Shown here: positions 10 through 63,275 of the stretch, piece by piece
How positions within the stretch are numbered: the stretch's first letter is position 1
Layout of the letters: each line of letters starts with the position of its first letter
Origin: Candidatus Omnitrophota bacterium
Lineage (GTDB): Bacteria > Omnitrophota > Gorgyraeia > Velamenicoccales > Velamenicoccaceae
DNA: 63,275 bases
Direction of reading: 5' to 3'
Assembly (NCBI GenBank): GCA_043802125.1
Contig: JAZDLG010000036.1
Location: 1-63,275 of the forward strand
Made by a program: the position numbers and the translations under genes
The notes under the pieces: model-generated
Databases searched by the model: none
What the model was told of the DNA's origin: nothing
What the model saw: only the letters and a program-made list of their open reading frames with translations

Positions 10-579
10 TTAATTATATGAATAGCCGCGATATTGAGCGCTGGAGTTCAACGTGACCTGAGGATTCGTATAATTTGCCGCTAATGAAGCGTTCTTTCTT
101 AAAGTGACAGATATATTAGATACACCGTTTACCGGAGCAGAAATGGAAAACTGTGCAGCCCTATTTGTCAATTGCGTATAGCTACCAGTAGTGCTGTCCG
201 GACGATAATCCAAAGTATAATTTGAAACATTGTAGCGATATTCAGCAAATCTATCACCGCTATCTGCCAAGCCGTTGCTGTTAAGATCTCTTCTTATCTG
301 ATATCGGCTAATTCCACCGGACAAAATGTAGTTATAAGGATAATCAGCCGCAACATTGACAACATCACCAACAGCCTGGTTGATATCTTTAGTCACCATC
401 GTCATAATTGGCACAGCCTCGGCTAAAAGTTGAGCCTCAGAATCTGTGGACGAAAATATGCGCCTCATACCCAACTCCATAGAAAGGCCGGTCAATATAA
501 TGATGTTCAATAATATTATAGCCAGTACGAGCTCTACTAGCGTCATAGCTCTCTTATCGGATCTAAATTGTTGTATCAT
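10..579 (-). CDS. minor pseudopilin with prepilin-type N-terminal helix (GspJ/PilW-like)
   Basis: N-terminus ...SDKRAMTLVELVLAIILLNIIIL is a methylation-motif-type hydrophobic helix with Glu at +5. It is the last gene of the pilin block. ATG at 579 is preferred over the TTG at 588 used by the track. Confidence 0.5.
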   Translation of the reverse strand: MIQQFRSDKRAMTLVELVLAIILLNIIILTGLSMELGMRRIFSSTDSEAQLLAEAVPIMTMVTKDINQAVGDVVNVAADYPYNYILSGGISRYQIRRDLNSNGLADSGDRFAEYRYNVSNYTLDYRPDSTTGSYTQLTNRAAQFSISAPVNGVSNISVTLRKNASLAANYTNPQVTLNSSAQYRGYSYN

Positions 580-919
580 TCCACGCAACCTGTACAGTTA
601 CTTTCCTGTAAGTAGCAGTGCCCGTGCCGCTATCAACTCTATAACGCACACTGTATGGAGGGTATGCTGTTGTATCCCATGCCCTCCACGTTCCGGTAGC
701 GTCAAAAAGGCCTGAGGGCGTATAGAACGTGACAGCATCTACCAAAGATCTCATCCTCTCTATTTCAGCCCTGGCTATTTCAACTGCCGTAACTCTGGTT
801 TTAGAGCGCGCCACAAGGTAGCGTGAAGACACAAGCACGCTAAAAATACCCGCGGCCAGCAAAGCCAAAATAACCGTGGAGACCATGATTTCAACAAGCG
901 TAAACCCGTTTTTCCTCAT
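563..919 (-). CDS. pseudopilin, GspI/PilV-like
   Basis: MRKNG|FTLVEIMVSTVILALL is a prepilin cleavage/methylation motif. The protein is small with a beta-rich C-terminus (YRKVTVQVAWND). The ATG at 919 forms an ATGA overlap with the upstream stop; the track start at 925 is GTG. Confidence 0.6.
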   Translation of the reverse strand: MRKNGFTLVEIMVSTVILALLAAGIFSVLVSSRYLVARSKTRVTAVEIARAEIERMRSLVDAVTFYTPSGLFDATGTWRAWDTTAYPPYSVRYRVDSGTGTATYRKVTVQVAWNDTTI

Positions 920-2863: not shown

Positions 2864-3268
2864 TTACATTACTGTTTGTGCCGTTGCATCGCCTGTCATG
2901 TTACCGGCTTGGCTTATATTAATAACATAGCCGCCTAATCCTGGATTGTCTACGGCATTCCTTGTAGCAGTAGAAACAACCGTAGTTTCGACACCGATAG
3001 CGCCTCCACCAACAGCAGTGATTGTAAAGTATTTTGGCGTCTGGAATGTTAGGTCAAGTTCTGTAAGGGTACCAGTAAAAAGACCTCTCTCCGCGGAATA
3101 TCTCATCTGTGAGCTCCTGACCTGCCCTAACAGAGCCTTTGCTTCAGCAACTCTACCCTTCTCAGCTATCTTGATATATCTGGGCAAAGCTATAGATGCT
3201 AAAATACCAATGACGATAACCACGATGATAAGTTCAAGTAACGTGAAACCTCTCTTGTCTTTACGCAT
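2864..3268 (-). CDS. type IV pilin/GspG-like, candidate major pilin
   Basis: MRKDKRG|FTLLELIIVVIVIGILASIALPRY followed by AEKGRVAEAKALLGQVR. It has its own sigma70-like promoter and a very strong SD (GGGAGGGAGGAATAAGATG). It contains no Cys. Confidence 0.75.
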   Translation of the reverse strand: MRKDKRGFTLLELIIVVIVIGILASIALPRYIKIAEKGRVAEAKALLGQVRSSQMRYSAERGLFTGTLTELDLTFQTPKYFTITAVGGGAIGVETTVVSTATRNAVDNPGLGGYVINISQAGNMTGDATAQTVM

Positions 3269-9112: not shown

Positions 9113-10741
9113 TTATATTCCGCCTATGGTCGCTATTTTTTCGCTTTTATTTTCACAAGTTACGTCAAACTGCATGTAATAGACTTTGCCTACGTTAACC
9201 TCGCGATATGATTTTAGTTCTATTGAAGGCGTATCCTTAGAGAAATCATTGTTTCCTTTAAGATTCAAGATAAATTTATTTATATTTTCTGACCTCATCT
9301 TCTGATCCGCATCATAAGAATAACAATGAAATTTCAGCGAATGTGGATTAGCGGAATAATCCAGCCCGGTCAACCATACGCCGGTCGGCATCAATCTTGA
9401 CAAAAGCAGGACCTTTTTATAGAAAAATGTGTTGTTAACTACCAATTTGCTGAAATCCCTTTGCTTTTCATTGAAAACCCTCTCGCTGGACTGAATACTC
9501 TCCAGGCTTGAGAGATCTACGCCCGGCAAAAGAGGCAGCTGTTTGACAGAAGCTGTGGCAAGCTGTTTTTCTAATGGAAATAGCTTTGAGAAACTCATGC
9601 CATAACCGGCGAGAAAGATCGCAACTCCTATTGCGAGGCCTTTCAAAATAGATGCTTTTGACTGTTTTAAAAAATCTGTAAATAAGACCTGCAGGTCTTC
9701 ACCCGAAGGTGCCGCTGCAGCCAAAGCTAATTTATCTGCTTTTTCTTTGGCTTTCCCGAGATTAAGTGTCACCAGAGACGGCCGCTCTATCCGAAGAGCA
9801 GCTCCATATGCCTTGGCTATATCTGATAACATATCTTCCTTGACGTCCTTTATCTTAAACAGGTCGTTAAGCGCTACAAAACTTACTTTAAGCCCCAATT
9901 CTTTGCTAAAATTGTCCACCCATGAACTATAACTTTTATTGGATATGACGATCATCTCGTCAATATCCCTTTTCATAAACTGCCTTCTATAGTAATCAAG
10001 CGATACTCTCACTTCATTGATAAGCCTAAAGAGAATGGCGTCAAATCCCTCATCCTCTTTAACGGCAGAGGCCGTGGAGATAAGTTTGATATCCCTGGTG
10101 AAATAAGGAAAACCTTTCTCCGCTATCAGGATATTCGCTTCTTGTTGATCGAACTCCAGGATAACGTAAGACTTTGTACTCAAGATCTTATTTTTAATGA
10201 CAAGAAGCCTGAAAAGACTGAATAGCGCAGGTTCAAAAGCTACGACGTTTAAATTAAGCTGCCTGAACAATCCTATATACTTATCAATAGGGTCTTGCTT
10301 GATGCCGCATAATACTACTTCAATGATATTGGCCTTTTGCTTTACGCGATACTGAAAATCATAGGCTAGTTCTTCTATCTTGAAAGGTATGTATTTCTTC
10401 ATCTCAAAATTAATACCCGCCAATACCTCAGACCTGGGTATATTGGGCATTTCAAAAAATCTGATTATAAGGTCTTTTGGCGGAAGAGCCACTACGACGC
10501 TTGACGTATCGATCCTGCTGTCTCTGATCGATTTTTGCAAAAAGGCGATCATTTCCGTTTCTTTATTTTTAAAAAGTTCAAATATATCATCAGAAAAAAT
10601 ACCCGTTGTGTCCTCGCGCTTTACAGGATAGGGCACACCCAATTGATTTTTTATTTTTCCCGCGGCCTGCTGGATGATGACCATACCTTTAGAGCTAAAG
10701 AAAAGCCCGGCTACATCTTTTTTAAAAAAATTGGCCAGCAT
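9113..10741 (-). CDS. PilM-PilN fusion protein
   Basis: The first ~330 aa are an actin-like PilM-type region. This is followed by a TM helix (GLAIGVAIFLAGYG) and a PilN-like C-terminus (LMPTGVWLTGLDY). An SD AAGGTGAGGG lies upstream. Confidence 0.6.
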   Translation of the reverse strand: MLANFFKKDVAGLFFSSKGMVIIQQAAGKIKNQLGVPYPVKREDTTGIFSDDIFELFKNKETEMIAFLQKSIRDSRIDTSSVVVALPPKDLIIRFFEMPNIPRSEVLAGINFEMKKYIPFKIEELAYDFQYRVKQKANIIEVVLCGIKQDPIDKYIGLFRQLNLNVVAFEPALFSLFRLLVIKNKILSTKSYVILEFDQQEANILIAEKGFPYFTRDIKLISTASAVKEDEGFDAILFRLINEVRVSLDYYRRQFMKRDIDEMIVISNKSYSSWVDNFSKELGLKVSFVALNDLFKIKDVKEDMLSDIAKAYGAALRIERPSLVTLNLGKAKEKADKLALAAAAPSGEDLQVLFTDFLKQSKASILKGLAIGVAIFLAGYGMSFSKLFPLEKQLATASVKQLPLLPGVDLSSLESIQSSERVFNEKQRDFSKLVVNNTFFYKKVLLLSRLMPTGVWLTGLDYSANPHSLKFHCYSYDADQKMRSENINKFILNLKGNNDFSKDTPSIELKSYREVNVGKVYYMQFDVTCENKSEKIATIGGI

Positions 10742-10750
10742 ACCCTCACC

Positions 10751-10834
10751 TTAATGAGCACATCAGTTATGGAGCGTTAGCAAACATAACTGATAAGTGC
10801 GAATTAATCCCGTACCCGAAGGGTATCGGGATCT
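10751..10834 (+). repeat. intergenic element family E, copy E1
   Basis: AATGA, P1 GCAC/GTGC, P2 ATCAGTTATG/CATAACTGAT (loop GAGCGTTAGCAAA), GAATTAA, then P3 TCCCGTACCC-gaa-GGGTATCGGGATCT. Confidence 0.85.
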
Positions 10835-10846
10835 ACTGTAGGTTTT

Positions 10847-11029
10847 TTACCTTATCTTTGCCCTTCTGTAATTAGACCTAAGCCACTTATCTACTTCTTT
10901 CTTATCAAAACGCCAGACTCCGCCCACCTTGATCCCGGATATCTTACTCTCGTGGAGCCAATTGTAGATAGTCTGTTTCTTGAGCCGTAAATATCCCGCC
11001 AATTCCTCTAGATCCATAAGACTGTACAT
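10847..11029 (-). CDS. excisionase/MerR-type helix-turn-helix DNA-binding protein
   Basis: LEELAGYLRLKKQTIYNWLHESKISGIKVGGVWRFDKKEVDKWL matches the excisionase-family HTH pattern. It is the first gene after the promoter at 11077-11105. Confidence 0.7.
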   Translation of the reverse strand: MYSLMDLEELAGYLRLKKQTIYNWLHESKISGIKVGGVWRFDKKEVDKWLRSNYRRAKIR

Positions 11030-11076
11030 AACAAAACTCCGCAGATCCTATTGATGAACACTTTTACGTCAAATTA

Positions 11077-11105
11077 ATTAAATCATAATATAATTACTTT
11101 GTCAA
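11077..11105 (-). promoter_or_regulatory. sigma70-like promoter heading the HTH-pilMNOPQBC operon
   Basis: Minus strand: TTGACA, 17 nt, TTTAAT, in an AT-rich 270-bp gap. A GGAG SD lies 9 nt before the HTH ATG. Confidence 0.55.
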
Positions 11106-11300
11106 TAAAATTTTTATATAGACTTACTTATACTTACTTTGAGTCCTCCAATGTGCACCGAAGGTGCGTTCAGCGAAATCTTGAGTACCAAAATGTATAA
11201 TTTTAGCGAAACCCCGCTCTAGCGGGCCCCGCGGGTTTTGCGGCGATTTAATCAGGAGCGCTTTAGTATCAGTATCTATCAGGAATATCTTAGGTAGGAA

Positions 11301-11648
11301 CTACCAGCTTGCTGAATAATTGAAGGTGGAATTAAGACGCGTAGTGCCAAAAACACCCGCGCCTGGCTCACTCGTAATGGAAGTAGGCGTTCTCCAGGCA
11401 GTGGGCGTTCCGCTTACAGCATCATACGTCCATTCTACGCTTGGTGTCGCTATCGCCTCCCCTCTGGAAAGACTATCAAAAGCAGCTACGGCACCTGATT
11501 CAGCGACATAGTATCCTTTGACGCGGCGTATATGGGTTTCCATAAGGCGGGTCTGCGAAGAAACGATGGTCAGGGTAATCCCAGCTAAAATAGTGAAGAT
11601 GAGCACAAAAAGAAGCACATTGATGATAGCAAGAGCTCGGCGTGTCAT
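11301..11648 (-). CDS. PilX-N-like minor pseudopilin
   Basis: N-terminus MTRRALAIINVLLFVLIFTILAGITLTIVSSQTRL...YYVAESG resembles the PilX_N / GspK-type N-terminus. Confidence 0.45.
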   Translation of the reverse strand: MTRRALAIINVLLFVLIFTILAGITLTIVSSQTRLMETHIRRVKGYYVAESGAVAAFDSLSRGEAIATPSVEWTYDAVSGTPTAWRTPTSITSEPGAGVFGTTRLNSTFNYSASW

Positions 11649-11653
11649 CGTCT

Positions 11654-11854
11654 TTATTTTCTCAAAGATATCCTATAATCGCCATCCCCTTTAATAAGGA
11701 CAATATGGCCTTCCCGGGCAAGCCAACCCATGCTCATCAAAAGCAGCTCTCTTGATTTATCAATATGTTTTACCATCTCTGAAAAAAGCACTTCTCCGTG
11801 CGCGTCAAGATAATGCCAGATGTCTCCTGCAGCGATGCCGATTTCCGTGATCAT
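11654..11854 (-). CDS. winged-helix protein, DUF2582-like
   Basis: IAAGDIWHYLDAHGEVLFSEMVKHIDKSRELLLMSMGWLAREGHIVL matches my memory of the DUF2582 wHTH family. There is a 4-nt overlap with the upstream gene. Confidence 0.55.
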   Translation of the reverse strand: MITEIGIAAGDIWHYLDAHGEVLFSEMVKHIDKSRELLLMSMGWLAREGHIVLIKGDGDYRISLRK

Positions 11855-12099
11855 ATATCACCCCCGGCTTTTTTTATTGTTTTCTGATTAAAACTTCCGC
11901 ACAATGGACACGAGCTTATATTGGAAGCCTTGGATTCAAAATACACATAAAAACAAGTAGAACATTGCCAGATCTGATCGTTCCTTAAAGCCCTTTGCCT
12001 GACGGCCGATCTTTTATCATACAGCCAAAAAAACAAGAACAAGATCAACTGACCACATAAATAATAACAGATAAGGATAGAAAAATCAATTTTAAACAT
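11851..12099 (-). CDS. small membrane protein with C-terminal zinc ribbon
   Basis: A TM helix (ILICYYLCGQLILFLFFWLY) followed by CSTC...CPLCG. The first 19 codons of the track ORF run through repeat E2, so the ATG at 12099 is preferred. Confidence 0.4.
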   Translation of the reverse strand: MFKIDFSILICYYLCGQLILFLFFWLYDKRSAVRQRALRNDQIWQCSTCFYVYFESKASNISSCPLCGSFNQKTIKKAGGDI

Positions 12100-12217
12100 T
12101 AAATGAGCAGACGACTTATAGCTCGCCCTACCGTAGGTAGGGGAACAACGAGACATAAGTCGTAGGCGTAAGCCGTCTGCGAATTAATCCCGTGACCGTT
12201 TTTTGGTCATCGGGATG
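12099..12217 (+). repeat. intergenic element family E, copy E2 (extra nested hairpin)
   Basis: AAATGA, P1 GCAG/CTGC, P2 ACGACTTAT/ATAAGTCGT enclosing the extra hairpin CCCTACC-gtag-GGTAGGG, GAATTAA, then P3 TCCCGTGACC-gtttttt-GGTCATCGGGAT. Confidence 0.85.
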
Positions 12218-12222
12218 TACAC

Positions 12223-12885
12223 CTACTTTATCTTAAACCGCACATCCACCACCGCTTCTTCTTTCTCAGGGACAGCCAGAAACCGCGCGTTTTTTAATTT
12301 TAACATTAAATAAAAATCCAAAATTGGGTCTCCACAACCCGTTATTTTTTTAATAGATCTTACCTCTCCGTTCCTATACAGAGTTATCTTAAATACAACT
12401 GCGCCGAAAAGATCTTCTCTTGAAGCCATTCTTTTCAAATCTGAAAAATCAACGTTAGCAACATAACGTGAAAAATCTGAAAAACCAAAAGATACCTGCC
12501 GGCCTAAAAGTGCCCCACCTATGGTCTGAGGCGGCGTCGCTTTCGTCTCATCCCGCGCCAAAGGCACAGCTTTGAGAAGCACCTTCGGTTTATAAACTTG
12601 CTGAAAAGACCTATCAAAATATGAATCCTGTGCCAGGCCCTGCCTGGTTTTATCGCTTACAAAGGAGATCTTCTTGGGCCGTAGCTGCGCACTTTCTGTC
12701 TGTTGCAAAGGCACTAGATCCTGGTCCTTGAGAAGCGCGCCTAAAAAAAAAGTGGAAGATCCCGGCGCGGTAAATACCGAGCAGCTCAAAACCGGGACAA
12801 TAATAAAGATCAAAGAAATATGCCATAACAAAGAAATAGAAAGCCCGAAAGAAAGGAAATCCTGGTGTGGGGCGCTATCATTCAT
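12223..12885 (-). CDS. TonB/TolA-like energy transducer
   Basis: N-terminal TM anchor, a linker and a C-terminal TonB_C-like domain (VVFKITLYRNGEVRSIKKITGCGDPILDFYL...VDVRFKI). It overlaps exbD by 8 nt. Confidence 0.5.
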   Translation of the reverse strand: MNDSAPHQDFLSFGLSISLLWHISLIFIIVPVLSCSVFTAPGSSTFFLGALLKDQDLVPLQQTESAQLRPKKISFVSDKTRQGLAQDSYFDRSFQQVYKPKVLLKAVPLARDETKATPPQTIGGALLGRQVSFGFSDFSRYVANVDFSDLKRMASREDLFGAVVFKITLYRNGEVRSIKKITGCGDPILDFYLMLKLKNARFLAVPEKEEAVVDVRFKIK

Positions 12886-13276
12886 TAGTTGCTATACTGA
12901 CTTTAAAAACACCTGCCTGCCTAAAAATATCCCAGACCTTGACCAAAGCCCCAACACTTGCCCTGCGATCTACCTTGATCAAGACCTGTTGCATCTTATC
13001 CTGCGATGCTTTGACAAAATGTACCAGCTCCTGATGGGAGACATTCTTTGAATCCAGGTAAATCGTATCATTCTTTAAAATAATAACTGTGATATCTTTA
13101 TGAGACAGGGGTTCGCCTGTAATAGCCCGTGGCAAGACTACGGAAAGACCCGTGGGATTTGAGAAGACAGGCAAAAAAAGGACGAATATCAAGAGTATTA
13201 AAAGGCAGTTGAGCAACGCCAAAAGAGATACAAATCTGAAATTACGGCTGACGACAGGGGCCCTAGCGAATCTCAC
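12878..13276 (-). CDS. exbD: ExbD/TolR family biopolymer transport protein
   Basis: Single TM followed by a periplasmic ExbD fold (ITVIILKNDTIYLDSKNVSHQELVHFV...VLIKVDRRASVGALVKV). Confidence 0.8.
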   Translation of the reverse strand: MRFARAPVVSRNFRFVSLLALLNCLLILLIFVLFLPVFSNPTGLSVVLPRAITGEPLSHKDITVIILKNDTIYLDSKNVSHQELVHFVKASQDKMQQVLIKVDRRASVGALVKVWDIFRQAGVFKVSIATNE

Positions 13277-13968
13277 ACCGACATCCTCCTGTCAATGAGA
13301 AAAATAAGAAGGTCACTGGCCCCCCTCTCTATCTCTTCTTGAGCTGACTTCAGGCGCCCCATCAAATAATTATAGGCGAACAAAACTGAAACTGTGACGA
13401 AAAAACCTGACGTTGTACAGATCAAAGCCTCCCAGATACCTATTGCCACATCCCCTCCCAAAAGAGGGGTAAAAGAAATGCCTTTGGCTTGAATGGTCAA
13501 AAATATCTTTATCATACCGACAAGCGTACCCAAAAACCCCAAGAGAGGTACAATCTGAATAATGGTAGACAGCATAGAAAGATTTTCTTCAAGAATAGGC
13601 GCTTCATAAAGAAAAGAATTTTCCATAGCCTCTTTTATCTCATCTTTTGAACTGTCATACTTCATAATGCCCTCTTTCAAGACTCTGGATAAAGGAGTAT
13701 TGGATCGCTCGCATAGATCAATGGCCTCTTTGATCCTCTGCCTTTCAATGCGTTCAAATATATCGCTAATGAATTTTTCAACAGGCGCGCCGTATTTAGA
13801 AAATTGCCTCACCTTGGAAAGAACAATAGCAAAAGCAAAAATAGAAGACAGAATGATAGGCACCATGACAGGCCCGCCCTTATGGAACAGATCTACGCCG
13901 ATAAATATAAAATAAGAAACCGCGATACTTAAAATAACAAGGACTACTTTTAGTATTTTATCTTTCAT
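13273..13968 (-). CDS. exbB: MotA/TolQ/ExbB proton-channel protein
   Basis: Three TM segments and the conserved C-terminal channel region (IVPLLGFLGTLVGMI...GGDVAIGIWEALICTTSG). The ATG at 13968 (MKDKILK) is preferred because the track N-terminus overlaps the TPR gene. Confidence 0.85.
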   Translation of the reverse strand: MKDKILKVVLVILSIAVSYFIFIGVDLFHKGGPVMVPIILSSIFAFAIVLSKVRQFSKYGAPVEKFISDIFERIERQRIKEAIDLCERSNTPLSRVLKEGIMKYDSSKDEIKEAMENSFLYEAPILEENLSMLSTIIQIVPLLGFLGTLVGMIKIFLTIQAKGISFTPLLGGDVAIGIWEALICTTSGFFVTVSVLFAYNYLMGRLKSAQEEIERGASDLLIFLIDRRMSV

Positions 13969-13990
13969 TGATTTTGCCTCATAAAGGAGT

Positions 13991-16474
13991 CTATTTGTCC
14001 AACCTGCTGTCTTGCTGTAGCCCTGCGAGCTTTTCTTTGGCATATTTAGCCTCGGGCACGTTATAGGCTGCTATCTTCTCCAATATATTCTTTAGTTCTC
14101 TCAAGTTTTCTTTGTTCTCATAGACCCTGGCGACGCGTAAGAGGGCCTTTACAACCCATGCATCCTGCTCGGGATAAAGATAAGATACCTTTAAGTAAGC
14201 TTCCAGCGCATCCTGAGTCGCTCCTTGTTCCTCAAGAAGCGAGGCTAAGTTAAACTGGATCTCGGCATTTGATTCCGTGCCTTCAATTGCCAATGCCTTA
14301 TCTAAAAACGCGACTGCTTCTTTATAAAGCTTTTTCTTTCTATAGACAGACGCAGTTTTAACGCAAGCAGTCTTTCCAAATCCACAACCGACAGAAACTG
14401 CCTCCTGGTAATTTCTTAACGCACTATCCAGGTCAAGCCTAAGAGCATAAATATCTCCGATAAAAAGATAGGCCTTAGCTAAGGTCCCTTTTTTGCCATA
14501 ATCTTTAGCCTGCCGGAAGTTCGTCAGAGCCCTATCCTGATTTCCTTCTCCCATGAAGCTGACGCCCATTTCTAAAAAAGCGTCTGCGATAAATTCATGC
14601 TGCGGATAGTTTCTGATCAATCTCTCAAAATATTTCCTGGCTGAAATGTAATCTTTTTTTTCTAAATATAACTCACCCAGCCAAAAAATTATATCCGGAG
14701 AAAGGTTAGAATCCGGATTGCGGGCGATAAAATCAGCGAACCTCTTGTCGGCTTCAGCCTCATTGCCCATTTGCGCGTAAGCGCTTGCGATCTCGTATTC
14801 CGCCTTCTGGCGCAGTGCCTCTGAACCTAAAGCCCCTTTTAAAATATACGAGAAAACATCTACAGCGTCTTTCCACCTGGAAAGATTCAAGAGAGCTTCG
14901 CCTAAAAGAAAAACAGCCTCGGGCCTATAAGAAGAATCTTTAAAGTGGTCTGAAAAATCTTTAAGCTGTTCCGCGGCGGCAGAGAAATCACCCTTCTGAA
15001 AATACGCTACGCCGATAAAATAATTGGCGCCATCTATCAGTTTTGAATCCGGATAGTCTTTTAAGAGCTTGCGAAAGGCCAGAATAGCCGAATCCAGGTC
15101 ATCGGTCTTTAGCCAGGTCATACCAAGCTGATATTGGACATAATCATTGTAAACGCTGTCCGGATAATCCTCCAGGAAACCGCGATATGTCTCAACCGCC
15201 TTTTTATATTCACCGGCATCCTGATACGCGTCACCCATCTGGCATAACGCGCTTAATTTGAAGATCTTGTCGGTTGATAAAGAAGCTACCTTCTGGAACT
15301 CATCCACTGCCGACCTGAAATCACCCACCTTTAAATAAGACCAGGCGAGGCCATAGTGGATCTTGTCCCTGAGTTCCTTGCTATCCGCATAGCCGCCTAC
15401 AGCGACTTTTAACTTATCTAAAGATATCCTATAGGCAATAATGGCATCCTGGAAACGAGTAAGATTATATAATGCCTCGGCCCTTCCAAAATAGGCAATA
15501 GGCGCATATTCACCCTCTTTATCTTTTGCGATGACATTATCAAAAAGCTCAAGCGATACCTCAAAAGACCCCAAGCCGCTTTCTAAAACGGCCCTGCCCA
15601 GCGTCACACCCAAAGGCTGGCCCTCATCACCTTCAAATTTTGAAAAGACCTCTTTGGCTTCTTGAAATCTCTTTACCCTAAGATATGACCATCCCATGCC
15701 GATCTGTGAAAGTAAATTCATTTCTTCATCTACAGAAGCACTCTGCGAATCACGATAAGCGGTAATAGCCTCATCGTAAAGTTCCAGGTAAAAATTAGCT
15801 TCACCTAAATAGAAGTAGGCGCGATTCAACAATTTAGAATCTGGGTACGAAGACACAAAAACCGATAATTCTTTCTTTAAGTCAGCGTAATCCCTCGTCA
15901 TATAAAGCGTTTCACAAATACCAAAAATGGCTTCCTCAACTACAGCCGCATCCTTAAAATGGGTGGAAATAAAGCGGTACGTATCCCGGGCTTCCTGTAA
16001 TTTAGCATCGTTCATCTGAGCCAATGCGAGAGATTTATGCGCGGCGAGATAATAAGAAGATTCCTTATAGTTATTTGTCAATTGTTTATAGAATTCCGCG
16101 GCCTGCTTGTAATCTCTTCCCCTGGAATAGACCTCACCCAACCAAAACAAGACCTTATCTTTGATGCGCTCGGCACCATCCATCTTTAAGAGAACTTCAA
16201 ATTGGTCAAGGGCTTTAAGATATTTCTCCTGGTAGAAATAACACTGTCCGGTATAAAGCAACGCTTCAGGTTTTTTATCGCTTGAAATATACGTTTTTAA
16301 AAAACGTTCAAACATTGCCATGGAGACGTCATAAAAGCCGTCTTCATAGGCCTTCGCGGCTACATAAAAAGCATCCTCTTCTTTTTTGTTGAAGTCCGCA
16401 GCCTCTATGCTGTTCAAACAAAAAAGACTCAAAACAACCAGTAAGGATATTTTAAAATATATTTTCATCATCAC
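13991..16474 (-). CDS. secreted multi-TPR protein (YbgF/CpoB/BamD-like repeats)
   Basis: Signal peptide followed by roughly 20 TPR-like units. It has repeated F..F...YPDS......A.Y.LG signatures. Confidence 0.85.
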   Translation of the reverse strand: MMMKIYFKISLLVVLSLFCLNSIEAADFNKKEEDAFYVAAKAYEDGFYDVSMAMFERFLKTYISSDKKPEALLYTGQCYFYQEKYLKALDQFEVLLKMDGAERIKDKVLFWLGEVYSRGRDYKQAAEFYKQLTNNYKESSYYLAAHKSLALAQMNDAKLQEARDTYRFISTHFKDAAVVEEAIFGICETLYMTRDYADLKKELSVFVSSYPDSKLLNRAYFYLGEANFYLELYDEAITAYRDSQSASVDEEMNLLSQIGMGWSYLRVKRFQEAKEVFSKFEGDEGQPLGVTLGRAVLESGLGSFEVSLELFDNVIAKDKEGEYAPIAYFGRAEALYNLTRFQDAIIAYRISLDKLKVAVGGYADSKELRDKIHYGLAWSYLKVGDFRSAVDEFQKVASLSTDKIFKLSALCQMGDAYQDAGEYKKAVETYRGFLEDYPDSVYNDYVQYQLGMTWLKTDDLDSAILAFRKLLKDYPDSKLIDGANYFIGVAYFQKGDFSAAAEQLKDFSDHFKDSSYRPEAVFLLGEALLNLSRWKDAVDVFSYILKGALGSEALRQKAEYEIASAYAQMGNEAEADKRFADFIARNPDSNLSPDIIFWLGELYLEKKDYISARKYFERLIRNYPQHEFIADAFLEMGVSFMGEGNQDRALTNFRQAKDYGKKGTLAKAYLFIGDIYALRLDLDSALRNYQEAVSVGCGFGKTACVKTASVYRKKKLYKEAVAFLDKALAIEGTESNAEIQFNLASLLEEQGATQDALEAYLKVSYLYPEQDAWVVKALLRVARVYENKENLRELKNILEKIAAYNVPEAKYAKEKLAGLQQDSRLDK

Positions 16475-36026: not shown

Positions 36027-36133
36027 TTGACCCTCGCCATTTACCTAATAAATGCATCATGGTAAATGCCAAGGGTCAAATTCGGCCCTATAACTTATGT
36101 TCTCTTTCGCTCCATAAGTTATGGCCTCATTTG
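36027..36133 (-). repeat. intergenic element family E, copy E5
   Basis: Minus strand: AAATGA, P1 GGCC/GGCC, P2 ATAACTTATG/CATAAGTTAT (loop GAGCGAAAGAGAA), GAATT, then P3 a 19-bp stem TGACCCTTGGCATTTACC.../...GGTAAATGGCGAGGGTCA. The last four argG codons (Q, M, R, P) and the stop lie inside it. Confidence 0.85.
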
Positions 36134-37294
36134 AAAAGGTAATCCCCAAAGCCGTATAAAACCTTCAGCTAGCTTTTGGTCAAATTTATCTTTCTCGGTA
36201 TATGTGGCCAACGACTCCTTATATAAAGACTTCGGAGATTTTCTACCCACCACGATACAATTACCTTTATAGAGTTTTAGACGCACTGTCCCTGCCACGT
36301 TCTTTTGAGTCTCTTTGATAAAAGCATCCATGGATCTCTTTAGCTCGGAGAACCATAAGCCGTAATAAACGAGCTCCGCGTATTTTTGTTCCAGGGACTG
36401 TTTGAAATGCATAAGCTCCCTGTCTAATACTAAGCTCTCTAAATCCCTGTGAGCAGCATAAAGGCACGTCGCCGCAGGAAATTCATAGATCTCGCGCGAC
36501 TTAATACCCACGAGCCTGTTCTCAACCATGTCCACCCTGCCGACGCCGTTTTTGCCACCGGCTTCATGCAGTCGCCGGATAAGAGCCTGCAATTCCATCT
36601 TTTTTCCGTTGACCGAAACCGGAACACCCTTATCAAAGCCTATCTCAATATAAGTAGGTTTTGAAGGCGCGTCCTCGGGTGCCACTGTCATCTGATAAGC
36701 GTCCTTTGGCGGCTCGTGATATGGGTCTTCCAATACGCCGCATTCAATGCTTATGCCCCAAAGATTCTTATCTATACTGTAAACCTTTTTCTTAGTGACA
36801 TTTAAAGGGATATTGTTCCGCTTGGCATAATCTATCTCTTCCTCTCTTGATTTAAACTCCCACTCCCGGACAGGCGCTACTATTTCAAGCTTTGGATCCA
36901 GAATATGGGCCGTCACTTCAAAACGCACCTGGTCATTGCCTTTACCTGTGCAGCCATGGCCTATGGCCGTCGCTTTTTCCAGGTGAGCCACTTCTACTAA
37001 ATGCCGTGCGATCAGTGGCCGAGTCAATGCCGTAGCCAGTAGATACTTACCCTCATAAGCTGCATTAGCCTGTAGCGTAGGAAGGATATAGTCACTAATA
37101 AACTCCTGTTTCAGATCACCAACATAGACTCTTTTGGCCCCGGTCTTTAAGGCCCTTTTTTCAACTTGCGCGAAATCTTCGCCCTGGCCTACATCACCGA
37201 TGTAAGCAATGACTTCATAACCTTTATCTTTAAGCCATTTGATGGCGCAGGACGTATCCAGGCCGCCTGAATATGCTAATACGACTTTCTTCAC
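36119..37294 (-). CDS. argG: argininosuccinate synthase
   Basis: VVLAYSGGLDTS, HGCTGKGNDQVRFE and the remaining conserved motifs. Confidence 0.97.
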   Translation of the reverse strand: MKKVVLAYSGGLDTSCAIKWLKDKGYEVIAYIGDVGQGEDFAQVEKRALKTGAKRVYVGDLKQEFISDYILPTLQANAAYEGKYLLATALTRPLIARHLVEVAHLEKATAIGHGCTGKGNDQVRFEVTAHILDPKLEIVAPVREWEFKSREEEIDYAKRNNIPLNVTKKKVYSIDKNLWGISIECGVLEDPYHEPPKDAYQMTVAPEDAPSKPTYIEIGFDKGVPVSVNGKKMELQALIRRLHEAGGKNGVGRVDMVENRLVGIKSREIYEFPAATCLYAAHRDLESLVLDRELMHFKQSLEQKYAELVYYGLWFSELKRSMDAFIKETQKNVAGTVRLKLYKGNCIVVGRKSPKSLYKESLATYTEKDKFDQKLAEGFIRLWGLPFQMRP

Positions 37295-40287: not shown

Positions 40288-40394
40288 AGATCCTTGACAT
40301 TCACCTTGACAATACATCGATGAAAATGTCAAGGATGAATTCGGACACATACTTTACATAAACTTTCGTTTATGTAAAGTATGTCCTCATTCAA
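40288..40394 (-). repeat. intergenic element family E, copy E6
   Basis: Minus strand: GAATGA, P1 GGAC/GTCC, P2 ATACTTTACATAAAC/GTTTATGTAAAGTAT (15 bp), GAATT, then P3 ATCCTTGACATT/AATGTCAAGGAT and CT. Confidence 0.85.
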
Positions 40395-41608
40395 TTATAA
40401 TCCGCGTTAATTCTCACATACCCGTAAGATAGGTCCGACGTATAAACGCAAGCCTCTGCTCTTCCTACATGCAGGTCAATGTCTACCCGCACGTTACTAC
40501 CCCGTAAAAAATCATTATTCTTAACAGGAACGGGTTTGCCGTTTTTAAAAACAAACTTTTTATTCAAATTAATATCCAACTTCTCAGCTTTTAAGGCCGA
40601 CGGGATAGAGCCTAACGCAGCTGCGATCCTACCCCAATTAGGGTCAGAGCCGAACATCGCGCACTTAAAAAGATTGGAATTAGCTACGCTAAACGCAAGC
40701 TGCTTTGCCGAAGAATAGTTAGAAGCACCCTTGACACGTATCTCAATGAATTTCGTCGCTCCCTCAGCATCGCGCACGATCATCTTAGCCAATGCCAGGC
40801 AGACTTCTTTAAGAGCAAGACAAAAAACAGCCTCTACAGCAGTGCCGCTTTTAATAAGCGCGCTATCGGATGCGCCGTTAGCCATAGCGACAACAGTATC
40901 GTTGGTGCTCATACAGCCGTCTATAGTAATAGCGTTAAAAGAAACTCCAACCGCGTCTCTGAGCGCTTTCTTTAAGACTTTCCCTGTAACAGAGGCGTCC
41001 GTAAAAATATAAGCGAGCATAGTCGCGTGCCTGCCTGCCGGCAGGCAGGTTTTCATTTGAGGCGCTATCATACCTGCGCCTTTAGCGATACCTGAAATAA
41101 TAACCCTCTTGTGCCCTATCCGGAATATCTTTGAAACCTCTTTTCGGAAAGTATCCGTTGTCAGAATAGCAGAAGCGGCATCGGATAACCCCTTGTAAGA
41201 AAGCTTCTTAGCTAAAACCGGAACCGCTGCCCTTATCTTTTCCATAGGAAGAAACTTTCCGATGATGCCCGTAGAAGATACTAAAACTTGTCCCGCGTCA
41301 ATTGATAGGCTCCTGGCAACAAGCTGTGTTGTGGTTATGGCATCAAGTAATCCCTGTTTGCCGGTCATGCAATTGGCATTACCGCTATTGACAACAACAG
41401 CCTTAAGGCTACCCTTAGTTAGATGCCGTCGGCTGATCTCAAGCGGTGCAGCCTGTATGCGGTTAGATGTAAACAGGCCGGCCGCAACACATGGCCGCAA
41501 CGAGTAAAAAAGCGCCAGGTCCTTTTTGCCGCTCTTTTTTATTTTTGCTGAAATTCCGCTGGCCTTAAATCCCAAAGGGAGGATACCGGAATCAAACTGC
41601 AGGCTCAT
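40391..41608 (-). CDS. argJ: bifunctional ornithine acetyltransferase / N-acetylglutamate synthase
   Basis: GFKASG, KGAGMIAPQM...ATMLAYIFTDA and CMSTNDT. It carries a 9-aa insertion (KTCLPAGRH) encoded by a 20-bp palindrome just before the A|TML self-cleavage site. Confidence 0.93.
   Translation of the reverse strand: MSLQFDSGILPLGFKASGISAKIKKSGKKDLALFYSLRPCVAAGLFTSNRIQAAPLEISRRHLTKGSLKAVVVNSGNANCMTGKQGLLDAITTTQLVARSLSIDAGQVLVSSTGIIGKFLPMEKIRAAVPVLAKKLSYKGLSDAASAILTTDTFRKEVSKIFRIGHKRVIISGIAKGAGMIAPQMKTCLPAGRHATMLAYIFTDASVTGKVLKKALRDAVGVSFNAITIDGCMSTNDTVVAMANGASDSALIKSGTAVEAVFCLALKEVCLALAKMIVRDAEGATKFIEIRVKGASNYSSAKQLAFSVANSNLFKCAMFGSDPNWGRIAAALGSIPSALKAEKLDINLNKKFVFKNGKPVPVKNNDFLRGSNVRVDIDLHVGRAEACVYTSDLSYGYVRINADYN
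41030..41049. repeat. 20-bp perfect palindrome CCTGCCTGCCGGCAGGCAGG (copy inside argJ)
   Basis: Read directly from the sequence. It is identical to 58877-58896. Confidence 0.95.
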
Positions 41609-47183: not shown

Positions 47184-47206
47184 TTTTACTACCAGATCCC
47201 CTACCT
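47184..47206. repeat. 23-bp direct repeat, copy 1 (relic of the leuB 3' end)
   Basis: TTTTACTACCAGATCCCCTACCT is identical to 47327-47349. On the minus strand it reads VGDLVVK followed by NL-stop, 3 nt before the asd ATG. Confidence 0.95.
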
Positions 47207-47316
47207 TAATGAGCAGATGACTTATGGAAAGCAGAGACATAAGTCATAGCAAAGCGTCTGCGAATTAATCCTCGTCATATACCTTAATTTATTTTGTAAG
47301 TGAATGACGAGGATCT
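47206..47316 (+). repeat. intergenic element family E, copy E3
   Basis: AATGA, P1 GCAGA/TCTGC, P2 TGACTTATG/CATAAGTCA, GAATTAA, then P3 TCCTCGTCAT, a 25-nt loop and ATGACGAGGATCT. Confidence 0.85.
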
Positions 47317-47317
47317 G

Positions 47318-48367
47318 TTACAGGTGTTTTACTACCAGATCCCCTACCTCACTCGTAGAGTACCCCATTTTTCCGGCTGCAAGAGACTTCAATTTGGTTT
47401 GCACGATCTTGATCACCGCGTCCTCAATGTACCTTGCGGCCTTTGCCTCGCCGATATTTTCAAGCAGCATGCCTGCGGCGCATATGGCAGCCAAAGGATT
47501 TATTACATTTTTCCCTGTATACTTAGGAGCCGAACCGCCTATAGGCTCAAACATGGACACACCATCCGGATTGATGTTGCCGCCTGCTGCGATCCCCATG
47601 CCGCCCTGGATCATAGCGCCCAGATCAGTGATAATATCTCCGAACATATTATCCGTCACAATAACATCAAACCACTCGGGATTTTTAACAAACCACATCG
47701 TCGTAGCATCAACATGGGCGTATTCAGTCTTAATATCCGGATATTCTTTAGCCACCTCATTGAACGTCCTCTGCCAAAGGTCCCATGCATAGGTAAGCAC
47801 GTTAGTCTTGCCGCAAAGAGTAAGCGTCTTTTTCTTATTGCGTTTACGCGTGAACTCAAAAGCATAACGAATACAGCGTTCAACGCCAGCCCTTGTATTA
47901 TATGAGATCTGTATAGCTACTTCGTCTTTAGTGCCTTTATCTTTGAACTCGCCTAACCCCTTATACAGGCCCTCGCTATTCTCGCGCACAACGACAAAAT
48001 CAATATCTTCCGGTTTTTTATCCTTTAAAGGACAAAATGCGGAATTATATAGCTTTACCGGGCGTAAATTAATGTATTGATCAAGCGCAAACCTTAATTT
48101 TAACAACACTCCTGTTTCTATAATGCCAGGCTTTACTTCCGGGTCACCGACCGCGCCAAGGTAGATCGCGTGATATTCCTTAAGTTCTTCAACGTCTTTA
48201 TCACTGACCAACTTCCCGGTTTTAAGATACCTTTTACCGCTAAAGTCAAATTCGCGCGTTTCATATTTAAAATTAAATTTCTTGCTCGCAGCCTCCATAA
48301 CTTTTAAGCCCTCGGCAACGACTTCAGGGCCTGTGCCGTCACCCGGTATCACCGCTATCTTATGCAT
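47318..48367 (-). CDS. leuB: 3-isopropylmalate dehydrogenase (isocitrate/isopropylmalate DH family)
   Basis: IAVIPGDGTGPEV, LRPVK, VRENSEGLY and NMFGDIITD. It is adjacent to leuCD. Confidence 0.85.
   Translation of the reverse strand: MHKIAVIPGDGTGPEVVAEGLKVMEAASKKFNFKYETREFDFSGKRYLKTGKLVSDKDVEELKEYHAIYLGAVGDPEVKPGIIETGVLLKLRFALDQYINLRPVKLYNSAFCPLKDKKPEDIDFVVVRENSEGLYKGLGEFKDKGTKDEVAIQISYNTRAGVERCIRYAFEFTRKRNKKKTLTLCGKTNVLTYAWDLWQRTFNEVAKEYPDIKTEYAHVDATTMWFVKNPEWFDVIVTDNMFGDIITDLGAMIQGGMGIAAGGNINPDGVSMFEPIGGSAPKYTGKNVINPLAAICAAGMLLENIGEAKAARYIEDAVIKIVQTKLKSLAAGKMGYSTSEVGDLVVKHL
47327..47349. repeat. 23-bp direct repeat, copy 2 (inside the leuB 3' end)
   Basis: Identical 23-mer encoding (E)VGDLVVK of LeuB. 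Confidence 0.95.
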
Positions 48368-56224: not shown

Positions 56225-56312
56225 AGATCCCGATGGCTAAGAAACAGCCACGGGATTAATTCGGCCTTACAACTTACATTTACCTCGTTCTGTAAGTTGT
56301 GGCCTCATTTAA
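56225..56312 (-). repeat. intergenic element family E, copy E4
   Basis: Minus strand: AAATGA (containing the coaD stop), P1 GGCC/GGCC, P2 ACAACTTACA/TGTAAGTTGT, GAATTAA, then P3 TCCCGTGGCT-gtttctt-AGCCATCGGGATCT. Confidence 0.85.
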
Positions 56313-56790
56313 TGCCGAGCTTCTTCTTAAGCGCCGACTCCACGCAAGACGGCAGAAAATATGAGATATCAGCGCCTAACGCGGCCGCTTCCTTAAGTAA
56401 TTTTGAAGAGACATAGCTGTAAGATTCGGAAGGCATAAGAAAAACAGTCTCTATGGAATCGTCAAATTTTCTATTGGTCAGCGCCATTTGAAACTCATAC
56501 TCAAAATCAGAAAGCATACGAAGGCCGCGGATGACAATATTGACTTTGTTTTTACGCGCAAAATCTACGACCAGGCCTTTGAAACTCGCCACAGTCACGC
56601 CCTCTATATCGCTCAAAGACTCTTTCAGCAAACGAACCCTCTCTTCAACCGTGAACATAGGGGCCTTCTCCGGATTAGGCGCGACAGCAACAATAACCTC
56701 GGAAAAAAGCTTAACAGCGCGCTTGATCACATCAATATGGCCGTTTGTAACGGGGTCAAAGGTTCCCGGATATATGGCTCTCTGGCACAC
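56305..56790 (-). CDS. coaD: phosphopantetheine adenylyltransferase
   Basis: AIYPGTFDPVTNGHIDVI. The start codon is GTG. Confidence 0.95.
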   Translation of the reverse strand: MCQRAIYPGTFDPVTNGHIDVIKRAVKLFSEVIVAVAPNPEKAPMFTVEERVRLLKESLSDIEGVTVASFKGLVVDFARKNKVNIVIRGLRMLSDFEYEFQMALTNRKFDDSIETVFLMPSESYSYVSSKLLKEAAALGADISYFLPSCVESALKKKLGIK

Positions 56791-62780: not shown

Positions 62781-62788
62781 AAATTAAA

Positions 62789-62903
62789 GAGGCGCCGTTC
62801 TACTCTCCCAGGCCCTTGCGAGCCAAGTACCATTGACCTCGAGGAGCTTAACTACCGTATTCGGAATGGGAACGGGTGTTTCCTCCCCAGTATAGGCACC
62901 TCA
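62789..62903 (-). rRNA. rrf: 5S ribosomal RNA
   Basis: The reverse complement reads GGTGCCTATACTGGGGAGGAAACACCCGTTCCCATTCCGAATACGGTAGTTAAGC...GGGAGAGTAGAACGGCGCC. It has the conserved CCGAA(C/T)ACGG loop and helix I pairing GGTGCC/GGCGCC. Confidence 0.9.
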
Positions 62904-63022: not shown

Positions 63023-63275
63023 GCGGTCAAGCCGATTGACAATTAGTATCCTTTAAGCTGAAACCCTTACGGGTCTTACACTTAGGACCTATCAACCCGG
63101 TGGTCTTCCGGGTGTCTATTCTTGTATTGCTACAAGAGGGAAGTCTATTCTTAAGGCGAGCTTGGCGCTTATATGCCTTCAGCGCTTATCTCTTCCGAAC
63201 ATGACTACCCAGCCTTTGCCCTTGGCAGGACAGCTGGAACACCAGAGGTTCGTTTGTCCTGGTCCTCTCGTACTA
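63023..63275 (-). rRNA. rrl: 23S ribosomal RNA, 3'-terminal ~250 nt (partial, continues beyond window)
   Basis: The reverse complement starts TAGTACGAGAGGACC (sarcin-ricin loop). It then contains GGAAGAGATAAGCGCTGAAGGCAT, GTTGATAGG and ACTAAT, as in the E. coli 23S 3' domain. Confidence 0.9.

Follow-up and report, generated by a model that had tools for sequence, protein, structure and literature searches.

The 63,275-nt stretch of contig JAZDLG010000036.1 from a Candidatus Omnitrophota bacterium (hereafter, the window) raises the question of what a structured hairpin element found at position 10751, and again at several other gene boundaries of the same stretch, represents. Omnitrophota are uncultured, mostly ultra-small bacteria with compact genomes. 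A preliminary description, made from the sequence alone, offered two alternatives, DNA elements resembling repetitive extragenic palindromes (REPs), bacterial interspersed mosaic elements (BIMEs) or miniature inverted-repeat transposable elements (MITEs) on the one hand, and an RNA hairpin module on the other. The description was supported by our analysis, in which the patchy occupation of orthologous junctions, the target duplications and the restriction of the stems to Watson-Crick pairs decide between the two in favour of the DNA alternative. We consider it probable that the element is a non-coding, non-autonomous, mobile mosaic palindromic DNA element of the REP/BIME kind, which includes the REP doublets forming hairpins (REPINs), and that it is specific to, and widespread in, Candidatus Omnitrophota.

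All six full copies of the preliminary description were recovered with the same positions and strands, and its layout could be read in every one of them. The copy proposed to be cut by the window start was confirmed as well: positions 1-13, when read on the minus strand, give TTAAATGAGGCCA, with which a seventh copy starts; its body lies beyond the window edge, and its TAA is the stop codon of the open reading frame (ORF) 10..588. A degenerate pattern derived from the copies (AATGAGSMSAYNMNTTAY-N10-40-RTAANKNRT-N4-30-CGAATT) matched the window at exactly the six copies and had 0 matches in 100 dinucleotide-preserving shuffles, and an unfiltered covariance-model scan of the entire window found no additional copy there. 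This corresponds to seven copies (six full and one cut) in 63 kb, all of them intergenic.

The possibility that no copies exist outside this stretch could be dismissed. One pattern scan of species-representative genomes, from which locus counts are a lower bound, returned at least 119 further loci (these, like the comparison loci described below, are referred to by L-numbers such as L004 or L121), nearly all of them in metagenome-assembled genomes (MAGs) labelled Candidatus Omnitrophota or Omnitrophica, and the covariance model gave 154 matches in 100 of these loci. The matches labelled Planctomycetia, Syntrophomonadaceae or Thermodesulfovibrionia are few, and all are metagenome bins; the module-bearing contigs with these labels or that of Planctomycetales are L008, L010, L013, L014, L022, L033, L036, L043, L071, L076 and L077. 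Because the family is so specific, they may be Omnitrophota contigs that were mislabelled or mis-binned. No family match was found among viral contigs, plasmids and phage records. A search of the whole window against Rfam 15 at the gathering threshold returned only 5S and 23S rRNA, and relaxing the threshold to E ≤ 10 for the region 10700-12300 added only two chance snoRNA matches away from the elements. Literature searches on Omnitrophota repeats, palindromes, RNA motifs and REPs or REP-associated tyrosine transposases (RAYTs), and the main Omnitrophota genomics paper (PMC10066038), gave no account of such an element, nor did the searches bring up any report on the repeats or non-coding elements of this phylum. 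The initial failure to recognize a named family was thus borne out, and the copies in the window are a local sample of a phylum-wide, previously undescribed family that is real and beyond chance.

To define the fold, 59 simple copies and then 114 model-aligned copies were aligned. The main part of the element (the module) is one long hairpin consisting, from base to tip, of P0, a GA/GA internal loop, P1, a bulge, P2, a second GA/GA(A) internal loop, P2b and an apical loop. P0 comprises 5 bp (NNAAU/AUUNN), the outer two of which vary yet stay complementary. The 2x2 loop between P0 and P1 is a tandem G·A, reading G-A on both strands, and is conserved in 110-114 of 114 copies (96-100%). P1 has 4 bp and is followed by a 1-3-nt bulge on the 3' side; P2 has 10 bp or more; and above the second loop a covarying P2b of 2-4 bp is capped mostly by GAA, GATA, GTTA, GCA, GTAA or GCAA. 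Copies 12099 and 47206 have an additional small hairpin between P2 and P1. Two or three bases past P0 starts another hairpin, P3, with the opening bases (A/T)A(T/C)CCC in 75-90% of copies; its base (ATCCC...GGGAT) is conserved and its interior, from ~10 to ~90 nt in length, is exchangeable, with such recurring types as CCCTTGACAT…, CCCCACACC…, CCCGAAGCCTACG…AAATTT… and a short CCCGCC…. A perfect stem of at least 7 bp beginning no more than 7 nt from the module occurs on the P3 side in 55% of units and on the other side in 6% (the mean fold energy of the non-P3 flank was distorted by outliers, and medians and fractions were used instead).

The layout originally proposed (AATGA, P1, a perfect P2 of 9-15 bp, a purine-rich apex, GAATT and P3) was therefore correct, with some refinements. 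Of the AATGA and GAATT segments, described as single-stranded, only GA/GA is unpaired in the Watson-Crick sense, as a tandem G·A, and the remainder forms the P0 helix with its covarying outer pairs. The apex is indeed purine-rich, but what was taken for a loop is really the second GA/GA(A) loop and P2b, topped by GAA or GNNA. A short P3 with a retained bulged A, given as the usual form, is found in three window copies only, while the other three have long P3 stems and it is only the P3 base that is conserved. Finally, as P3 begins just beyond the closed P0 of the module hairpin, the three stems form two adjacent hairpins and not a three-way junction.

The fold is strongly supported. For the six window copies its stability compared with shuffled sequence corresponds to z = -5.1 to -8.7, and the complementary strand of each copy folds nearly as well. 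Standard pairs occupy 96.8% of the cells in the 114 copies versus 79.0 ± 0.5% with partners shuffled, and sliding the partner by 1-3 columns leaves pairing in only 23-37%. The earlier statement that the stems vary while pairing persists held up with the added copies, since all 19 of the 19 modelled pairs have changed on both sides (381 cells in total). The alignment was fitted to the model and is thereby biased towards the structure, but the margin is wide, and the complementarity of the stems is plain to see in the raw sequences as well.

Evidence that the element moves came from orthologous junctions. Using ArgB as a probe, we compared 80 syntenic metagenome loci (60-95% identity) that share the gene order g425-g163-isodh-asd-…-rplM-rpsI-argC-argJ-argB-argD-argF-argG-argH. 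The argJ|argB spacer in these 80 loci is mostly 4-24 nt long and contains only a Shine-Dalgarno sequence. Modules occupy it in scattered lineages, as a doublet in L143, L151 and L159 and as a single reversed copy in L156, L157, L174 and L195; elsewhere it holds unrelated palindromes or a lone P3-type hairpin (L121, L123, L127). The closest relatives of the window are free of modules: L120 (95% ArgB identity) at two comparable window sites, its locus ending before argG|argH, and L121 (92%) at all three, with clean uninterrupted empty sites at isodh|asd and argG|argH. In fact, the nearest loci by ArgB (71-95% identity) contain 0 modules in ~200 kb versus 7 in the 63-kb window.

The junction sequences themselves point in the same direction. 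Copy 47206 is flanked by a perfect 23-nt direct repeat, TTTTACTACCAGATCCCCTACCT, corresponding to the 3' end of the isopropylmalate/isocitrate-dehydrogenase-family (Iso_dh) gene. The left repeat (47184..47206, plus strand) is the displaced original 3' end of this gene, with the …VKNL* ending, and is now non-coding; the right one (47327..47349, plus strand) still lies within the coding sequence and runs into the element, giving …VKHL*; in L121 the site is uninterrupted. Among 151 units, flanking direct repeats of 14-26 nt were detected in seven, compared with at most 12 nt in mismatched controls. Six of the seven have repeats of 14-23 nt, and the 26-nt case is a tandem duplication of a whole unit (L108, positions 505-860, comprising the module, P3 and ~60 nt of flank). 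In four of the six the repeat is a partial duplication of a tRNA gene beside the intact tRNA, namely tRNA-Arg(TCT) in L004 and L035 and tRNA-Glu in L021 and L006. The preserved duplications, together with filled and empty sites, show that insertion events took place, recently so in this genome.

Several other arrangements were observed at such sites. In L035 (~2990-3210, minus strand) the 19-bp arms of a P3 stem (CTCCGTACCAAGAATTTGT / ACAAATTCTTGGTACGGAG) surround the complete tRNA-Arg(TCT) gene, and a partial 5' copy of the gene lies on the opposite side of the module. In L094 (3536-3670) a module without P3 directly abuts the 3' end of tRNA-Glu(TTC), and the acceptor and T arm of this tRNA occupy the usual place of P3. 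At argJ|argB and neighbouring orthologous junctions of L120, L122, L124, L126, L129, L144, L146 and L194 there are at least five further, unrelated palindromic insertion families, built of short tandem motifs (AGTAAT…, CACAAAG…, GGTTAGCG…, GTTATGGG…, CACGAATTAA…). The gene boundaries of this clade are hot spots for hairpin DNA generally.

The units are also mosaic. L151 and L159 have the same two flanking modules and different P3 hairpins between them. Among the 161 full-length modules, 12 of the 12 opposite-strand pairs are arranged as module-P3-inverted module and none (0) in the opposite way; additional doublets are those of L143, L151 and L159, and single modules are the majority. The exchange of P3 between L151 and L159 and the fixed form of the doublets imply that the parts recombine or insert separately, as in BIMEs. 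A tail following P3 (…AGGT-N-TTTTAC) is specific to a subfamily, occurring only in three window copies and in L021.

To which molecule does the conserved fold belong? Structured RNAs normally contain many G·U pairs. In the module these are no commoner than any other mismatch: among the 2166 paired cells there are 19 with G·U on the strand of the original reading (the reader's strand), 28 that would be G·U on the other strand and 42 with other mismatches, and the type of wobble shows no association with the transcribed strand (Fisher p = 0.70). The constraint is Watson-Crick only, whichever strand is transcribed. Likewise, GA/GA is kept at 96-100%, though for at least 45 of the 114 copies transcription uses the other strand, so that their mRNA has UC/UC. 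Tandem G·A pairs and GNRA-like loops are classical RNA motifs; tandem sheared G·A (pyrimidine-GA-purine) and GNA or GNNA loops closed by C-G also mark unusually stable DNA hairpins, a point to which we assign low weight. No promoter or terminator consensus was found at the elements, the site counts being no better than in shuffles. A terminator scan called canonical U-tract terminators elsewhere in the window and none of the elements, and the sequence after P3 reads ATCT… on one strand and TTAATTCG on the other, with no U-tract. The rarity of G·U pairs and their independence of transcription, the invariant GA/GA and the missing promoter or terminator consensus together favour a constraint acting on folded DNA, or on both strands, more than on mRNA.

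The gene context was assessed around the 161 full-length modules (from the window and the at least 119 loci), with ORFs called by a simple heuristic. In 79 of them the reverse complement of the reader's orientation stands immediately 5' of a start codon. For 24 of these 79 the start codon follows 1-6 nt past CTCATT, which leaves no room for a Shine-Dalgarno sequence; for another 47 it follows at 10-18 nt, and AAGGAGG abuts CTCATT. In a further 29 of the 161 the element has the reader's orientation and the upstream ORF ends inside (T)(A)AATGAG, with the stop at offset -2, -1 or +2. Between co-directional genes the first orientation is found 51 times (with 13 additional ambiguous cases) and the second 18 times, and only seven modules lie in convergent gene pairs and seven in divergent ones. 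The proposed tolerance of orientation is hence true in that both orientations occur, but it is not neutral, the reader's strand being antisense to genes by ~3:1. The strand with the G·A tandems, usually antisense, is the locally C-rich one in 94 of 134 cases; a GC-skew test for the replication strand merely repeats the gene-orientation bias, so that replication and transcription are not separable by it. The neighbours span 108 Pfam families (MreB, Hsp70, SecY, RRF, ribosomal proteins, GroEL, ATP synthase c and others). With neighbours so diverse, the element does not regulate a single pathway, and a gene-specific riboregulator was ruled out. In L143, L151, L156, L157, L159, L174 and L195 a reversed module stands 1-6 nt before the argB start, and the Shine-Dalgarno sequence of the orthologues is gone.

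The individual copies illustrate how closely the units fit their neighbours. The window genes lie nearly all on the minus strand, and the elements occupy the junctions argJ|argB, argG|argH and Iso_dh|asd, as well as those between a coaD-like and a yceD-like gene and between a small helix-turn-helix (HTH) gene and a pilM-like gene. At the last of these, the module hairpin of copy 10751 (10748..10810, plus strand, antisense to genes) consists of P0 TTAAT/ATTAA, GA/GA, P1 GCAC/GTGC and, as P2, ATCAGTTATG paired to its complement; read on the opposite strand, the hairpin ends CTCATT-AAGGTGAGGG-T-ATG, leading into the pilM-like gene (9113..10741). Its P3 (10808..10848, plus strand; TCCCGTACCC / GGGTATCGGGA, with one bulged base) carries the subfamily tail CTACTGTAGGTTTTTT. 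The copy provides a new stop codon for the HTH gene, and the hexamers TAAGGT/ACCTTA at 10746-10751 and 10849-10854 are, judging by their sequence, a probable 6-nt target duplication. Copy 12099, of the GCAG type (module 12097..12190, plus strand), has an enlarged apex and, as its extra small hairpin, GGCGTAAGCC; P3 is TCCCGTGACC / GGTCATCGGGA (12188..12215, plus strand), and 2 nt beyond the reverse complement is the ATG of a small zinc-finger ORF. Both copies are interspersed, with small winged-helix and zinc-finger ORFs, in a type IV pilus-like cluster (9113-16474, minus strand) encoding a PilM/PilN fusion-like protein, a small pseudopilin-like protein and a large tetratricopeptide-repeat protein.

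The two copies among the arg genes are on the minus strand and sense to genes. The argG frame enters the module of copy 36027 (36074..36136; …CAA ATG AGG CCA TAA), and the 5' strand of its P0, CAAAT, is formed by the conserved last codons of argG paired with the element's ATTTG; the long P3 (36029..36077, minus strand; GACCCTTGGCATTTACC … GGTAAATGGCGAGGGTC) is followed by the Shine-Dalgarno sequence and ATG of argH. In copy 40288 (module 40333..40396, with a P2 of 15 bp) the argJ stop codon TGA lies within the 5' strand of P0 (TGAAT/ATTCA), where it is paired with TCA, and the long P3 (40290..40336, minus strand; ATCCTTGACAT … ATGTCAAGGAT) is of a 'TTGACAT' type that recurs in other MAGs. Copy 47206 is a GCAG-type module with the extra small hairpin (47203..47271, plus strand), antisense to genes, with a long P3 (47268..47326, plus strand; ATCCTCGTCAT … ATGACGAGGAT) and the tail CTGTTACAGGTG, from which, on the gene strand, the Iso_dh gene now takes its final codons, CAC CTG TAA. 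Copy 56225 (module 56253..56314, minus strand) is sense to genes; the stop of the coaD-like gene is the TGA inside its AATGAG, and P3 (56210..56256, minus strand; ATCCCGTGGCT / AGCCATCGGGAT) with the tail CTATTGAGGTATTTTAC lies upstream of the yceD-like gene. Farther along the window are the 5S rRNA gene (62787-62903) and the 3' end of 23S rRNA (63023-63275), both on the minus strand like nearly all protein genes, which is consistent with a single direction of replication and transcription through the window.

If the element is mobile DNA, the hairpin would act as folded single-stranded DNA, on the strand with the G·A tandems and GNA loops, and a putative enzyme would recognize it and copy or insert the unit at gene boundaries. 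In a genome with spacers of 4-24 nt, insertions would survive only where both genes stay intact, so that units come to lie flush with stop and start codons; a unit may in addition donate a stop codon or replace a Shine-Dalgarno spacer. A resident unit would be co-transcribed as a very stable hairpin. By analogy with REP, BIME and Correia elements, such a hairpin would probably influence the decay of the mRNA and the translational coupling of its genes.

A number of observations weigh against this interpretation. No mobilizing enzyme was found: inverted modules enclose no transposase, and the one conserved RAYT-like family is flanked by another palindrome (see below). Terminal inverted repeats are missing, clear target duplications accompany only ~5% of units, and the duplication lengths, from 6 to ~25 nt, match no standard transposase. 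Conservation of the core sequence extends to lineages whose ArgB is only ~60% identical, and the P1 subtypes GCAC, GGCC, GCAG, GGAC and GCCC coexist in many genomes, that of the window included, which implies long persistence; such persistence exceeds that of ordinary selfish repeats, and a host function could account for it. RNA-level selection could also produce the ~3:1 orientation bias. Moreover, P0 pairing is retained where one strand is coding (CAAA of argG with TTTG of the element), and this pairing with argG codons in copy 36027 and with the argJ stop in copy 40288 suggests selection on the fold at the resident site.

These points lead directly to the most serious rival, in which the element is a cis-acting RNA hairpin selected by the host within operons, as an mRNA stabilizer, a processing site for an RNase III-like endonuclease or a translational insulator, its spread being secondary. 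The very stable fold conserved through the phylum would suit such a role, as would the 76 of 161 copies located between co-directional genes (likely operons), the many highly expressed housekeeping neighbours, the orientation bias, the P0 pairing held against coding sequence and the RNA-like motifs; the 24 copies that leave no space for a Shine-Dalgarno sequence, where element-free orthologues retain one, fit it too. It is difficult to reconcile, however, with G·U pairs as rare as other mismatches and not following the transcribed strand, with GA/GA invariant even where the mRNA has UC/UC, with both orientations at equivalent junctions, and with closest relatives that are element-free, and other relatives that have unrelated hairpins, at the same junctions; nor is there a specifically associated gene family or a promoter or terminator consensus. 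We regard this explanation as unlikely, albeit not negligible, and given the persistence, P0 pairing and bias, an RNA role at the level of the host stays in contention, either as a rival or as an added layer. A small RNA gene with its own transcription from the G·A strand, in most copies cis-antisense over the ribosome-binding site of a neighbour, would account for the strand with RNA-like motifs being antisense to the flanking genes in ~70% of copies, which directly abut the reverse complement of a Shine-Dalgarno sequence and ATG. On the other hand, with unrelated coding sequence on its flanks every copy would require a separate promoter within the neighbouring gene, and no promoter-like site is associated, no U-tract terminator follows P3, G·U pairs are scarce on that strand and in ~25% of copies the G·A strand is simply within the mRNA; this makes the small RNA gene very unlikely.

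The remaining alternatives are even harder to sustain. The hammerhead core is CUGAUGA-stem II-GAAA-stem III, and hammerheads as well as kink-turns have a helix extended by tandem G·A pairs. The arrangement AAUGA-[stem]-GAA-[stem] is superficially similar, which would suggest a self-cleaving ribozyme or a kink-turn bound by a protein. But the core actually reads (U/A)AAUGA…GAAUU(A) and not CUGANGA…GAAA, an A stands at the position equivalent to the essential G5, the would-be open junction is paired as the covarying P0, and 2-3 extra nucleotides separate GA-A from P3; for a kink-turn, the 3-nt bulge is missing and the tandem G·A belongs to the symmetric 2x2 loop that separates P0 from P1. Rfam gave no hammerhead or other ribozyme even at E ≤ 10, and both orientations occur. 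The core sequence and the covarying P0 rule out the hammerhead-like and kink-turn readings, and we give this class almost no credence. A site for a host protein, either bound as double-stranded DNA or recombined like an integron attC, would fit a palindrome with a conserved base and a variable centre, and attC sites, like the element, often overlap the stop codon of the upstream gene. Duplex operators, however, do not evolve by varying their stems while keeping them complementary, and the half-sites here differ exactly at GA versus TC; as for attC, there are no R'/R'' boxes (GTTRRRY/RYYYAAC), the neighbours are core housekeeping genes (arg, asd, pil, ribosomal) and not cassettes, and orientation is mixed within one gene train. 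We consider such a site highly improbable.

How does a mobile DNA element of this structure compare with those already known? Like the REP/BIME/REPIN-RAYT systems of Proteobacteria, it is a short, imperfect extragenic palindrome with conserved mismatches, repeated many times in a genome, where it is squeezed between the genes of an operon in both orientations; the frequent inverted doublets, with module-P3-inverted module resembling a REPIN, and the BIME-like mosaic combination with other motifs extend the similarity. REPINs persist long-term within a lineage (bioRxiv 10.1101/2021.07.10.451892; PMC3116915), and so does the Omnitrophota family. It departs from REPs in that its hairpin is both longer and more complex, with two G·A tandems, a bulge and a neighbouring second hairpin; it has no GTAG-type 5' tetranucleotide, the unpaired conserved bases being GA/GA and the flanking columns variable; REPs make no target duplications, whereas some of the present copies have duplications of 14-23 nt; and the sequence is conserved over a candidate phylum rather than a genus. 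The element likewise resembles such bacterial MITEs as the Correia elements of Neisseria, the pneumococcal RUP and BOX and the Rickettsia palindromic elements, which are non-coding and hairpin-forming, 100-150 nt long, inserted beside or into the ends of housekeeping and tRNA genes, patchy among relatives, able to donate stop codons and alter gene ends and, in the case of BOX, modular. It differs from MITEs in that it has neither terminal inverted repeats nor a fixed TA or TTAA duplication, no parent insertion sequence was found between inverted modules, and its arms covary inside each copy instead of merely decaying. In fact, the unit ends defined from the direct-repeat cases (e.g. ATGAGCAC… versus …AGGTTTTTT) are not inverted repeats, and the duplications, far from a fixed short length, measure 14-23 nt in six units and probably 6 nt at 10751 and are mostly undetectable. 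With the ends of IS200/IS605 elements and their miniature derivatives it shares a likely active form as a folded single DNA strand with bulged or mismatched hairpins, the lack of terminal inverted repeats and an orientation biased relative to the G/C-rich strand; those elements insert 3' of a fixed tetra- or pentanucleotide and without target duplication, neither of which is seen here, and no Y1 transposase is linked to the module. Nor do the elements combine a G+C-rich hairpin with the U-tract of an intrinsic terminator. Overall, by their defining features, REP-RAYT systems, DDE-type MITEs, IS200/IS605 ends, attC sites, terminators and known RNA families all exclude this family.

The preliminary description had suggested looking for a RAYT. 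A conserved RAYT-like gene family is indeed present, but its flanking palindrome differs from the module. A tblastn search with IS608 TnpA (an approximate query) gave one weak match, a genuine gene for a 204-aa Y1_Tnp protein in L036 (7074-7688, minus strand). At E ≤ 1e-10 this protein has 995 relatives, of which the top 120 are 60-81% identical to it, and all named ones are from Omnitrophota; the proteins are 195-204 aa long, IS200-like and RAYT-like, and usually encoded on one contig per cluster. The family looks like a domesticated RAYT. In L036 and three further genomic contexts (among L200-L205, with the gene at 4001-4591 in L200 and in L202 and at 2105-2695 in L204) the gene is bounded on both sides by inverted GGGGACGTYCCC…GTGCCACCC repeats and not, as expected of a REP-RAYT pair, by the module; an nhmmer search of L200-L205 found no module near it (one Y1 family was surveyed, and other Y1 families were not). 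Palindromes of the GGGACTGTCCC / GGGGACTGTCCCC type, which resemble the repeats beside the RAYT-like gene, occur in 36 of the loci analysed and nowhere in the window; at isodh|asd and argG|argH of L144, L149, L157, L170 and L180 some of them follow GTAG. Because the RAYT-like gene is flanked by these other repeats and the module is absent nearby, it most likely serves the separate GGGAC..GTCCC palindromes found at other junctions, and the gene with its flanking repeats looks like a second, separate REP-RAYT-type system in Omnitrophota. An autonomous parent element was also sought and rejected, as inverted module pairs 0.25-4 kb apart contain housekeeping genes only and no transposase.

A bolder version of the mobile DNA interpretation, which we view as rather doubtful, is that the family forms the visible half of an unrecognized, phylum-wide mobilization system, in which a folded hairpin is copied into gene boundaries by an enzyme and which is neither REP/RAYT, IS200/IS605 nor a DDE-type MITE. 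The folded single-stranded hairpin would then operate as DNA, possibly via an RNA intermediate, and staggered or template-switching joins would duplicate 6 to ~25 nt of the target, enough for the cut end of a tRNA or protein gene to be rebuilt. The family would then represent a new class of prokaryotic non-autonomous elements. As a secondary possibility, a hairpin standing 0-4 nt ahead of a start codon may functionally substitute for the Shine-Dalgarno sequence.

For the biology of Omnitrophota, the picture is one of tightly packed housekeeping operons repeatedly invaded by structured hairpin units that are able to rewrite stop codons, gene ends and ribosome-binding spacers; the reversed modules found at argB without a Shine-Dalgarno sequence raise the question of how such genes are translated. 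On the practical side, gene callers should be used with caution here, as the elements give rise to spurious short ORFs and displace gene ends, and the covariance model can be used as a marker of Omnitrophota contigs and a flag for mis-binned ones. If the mobilizing enzyme is found, it could reveal a new recombinase system for single-strand DNA, one whose substrate is well defined and shared throughout the phylum.

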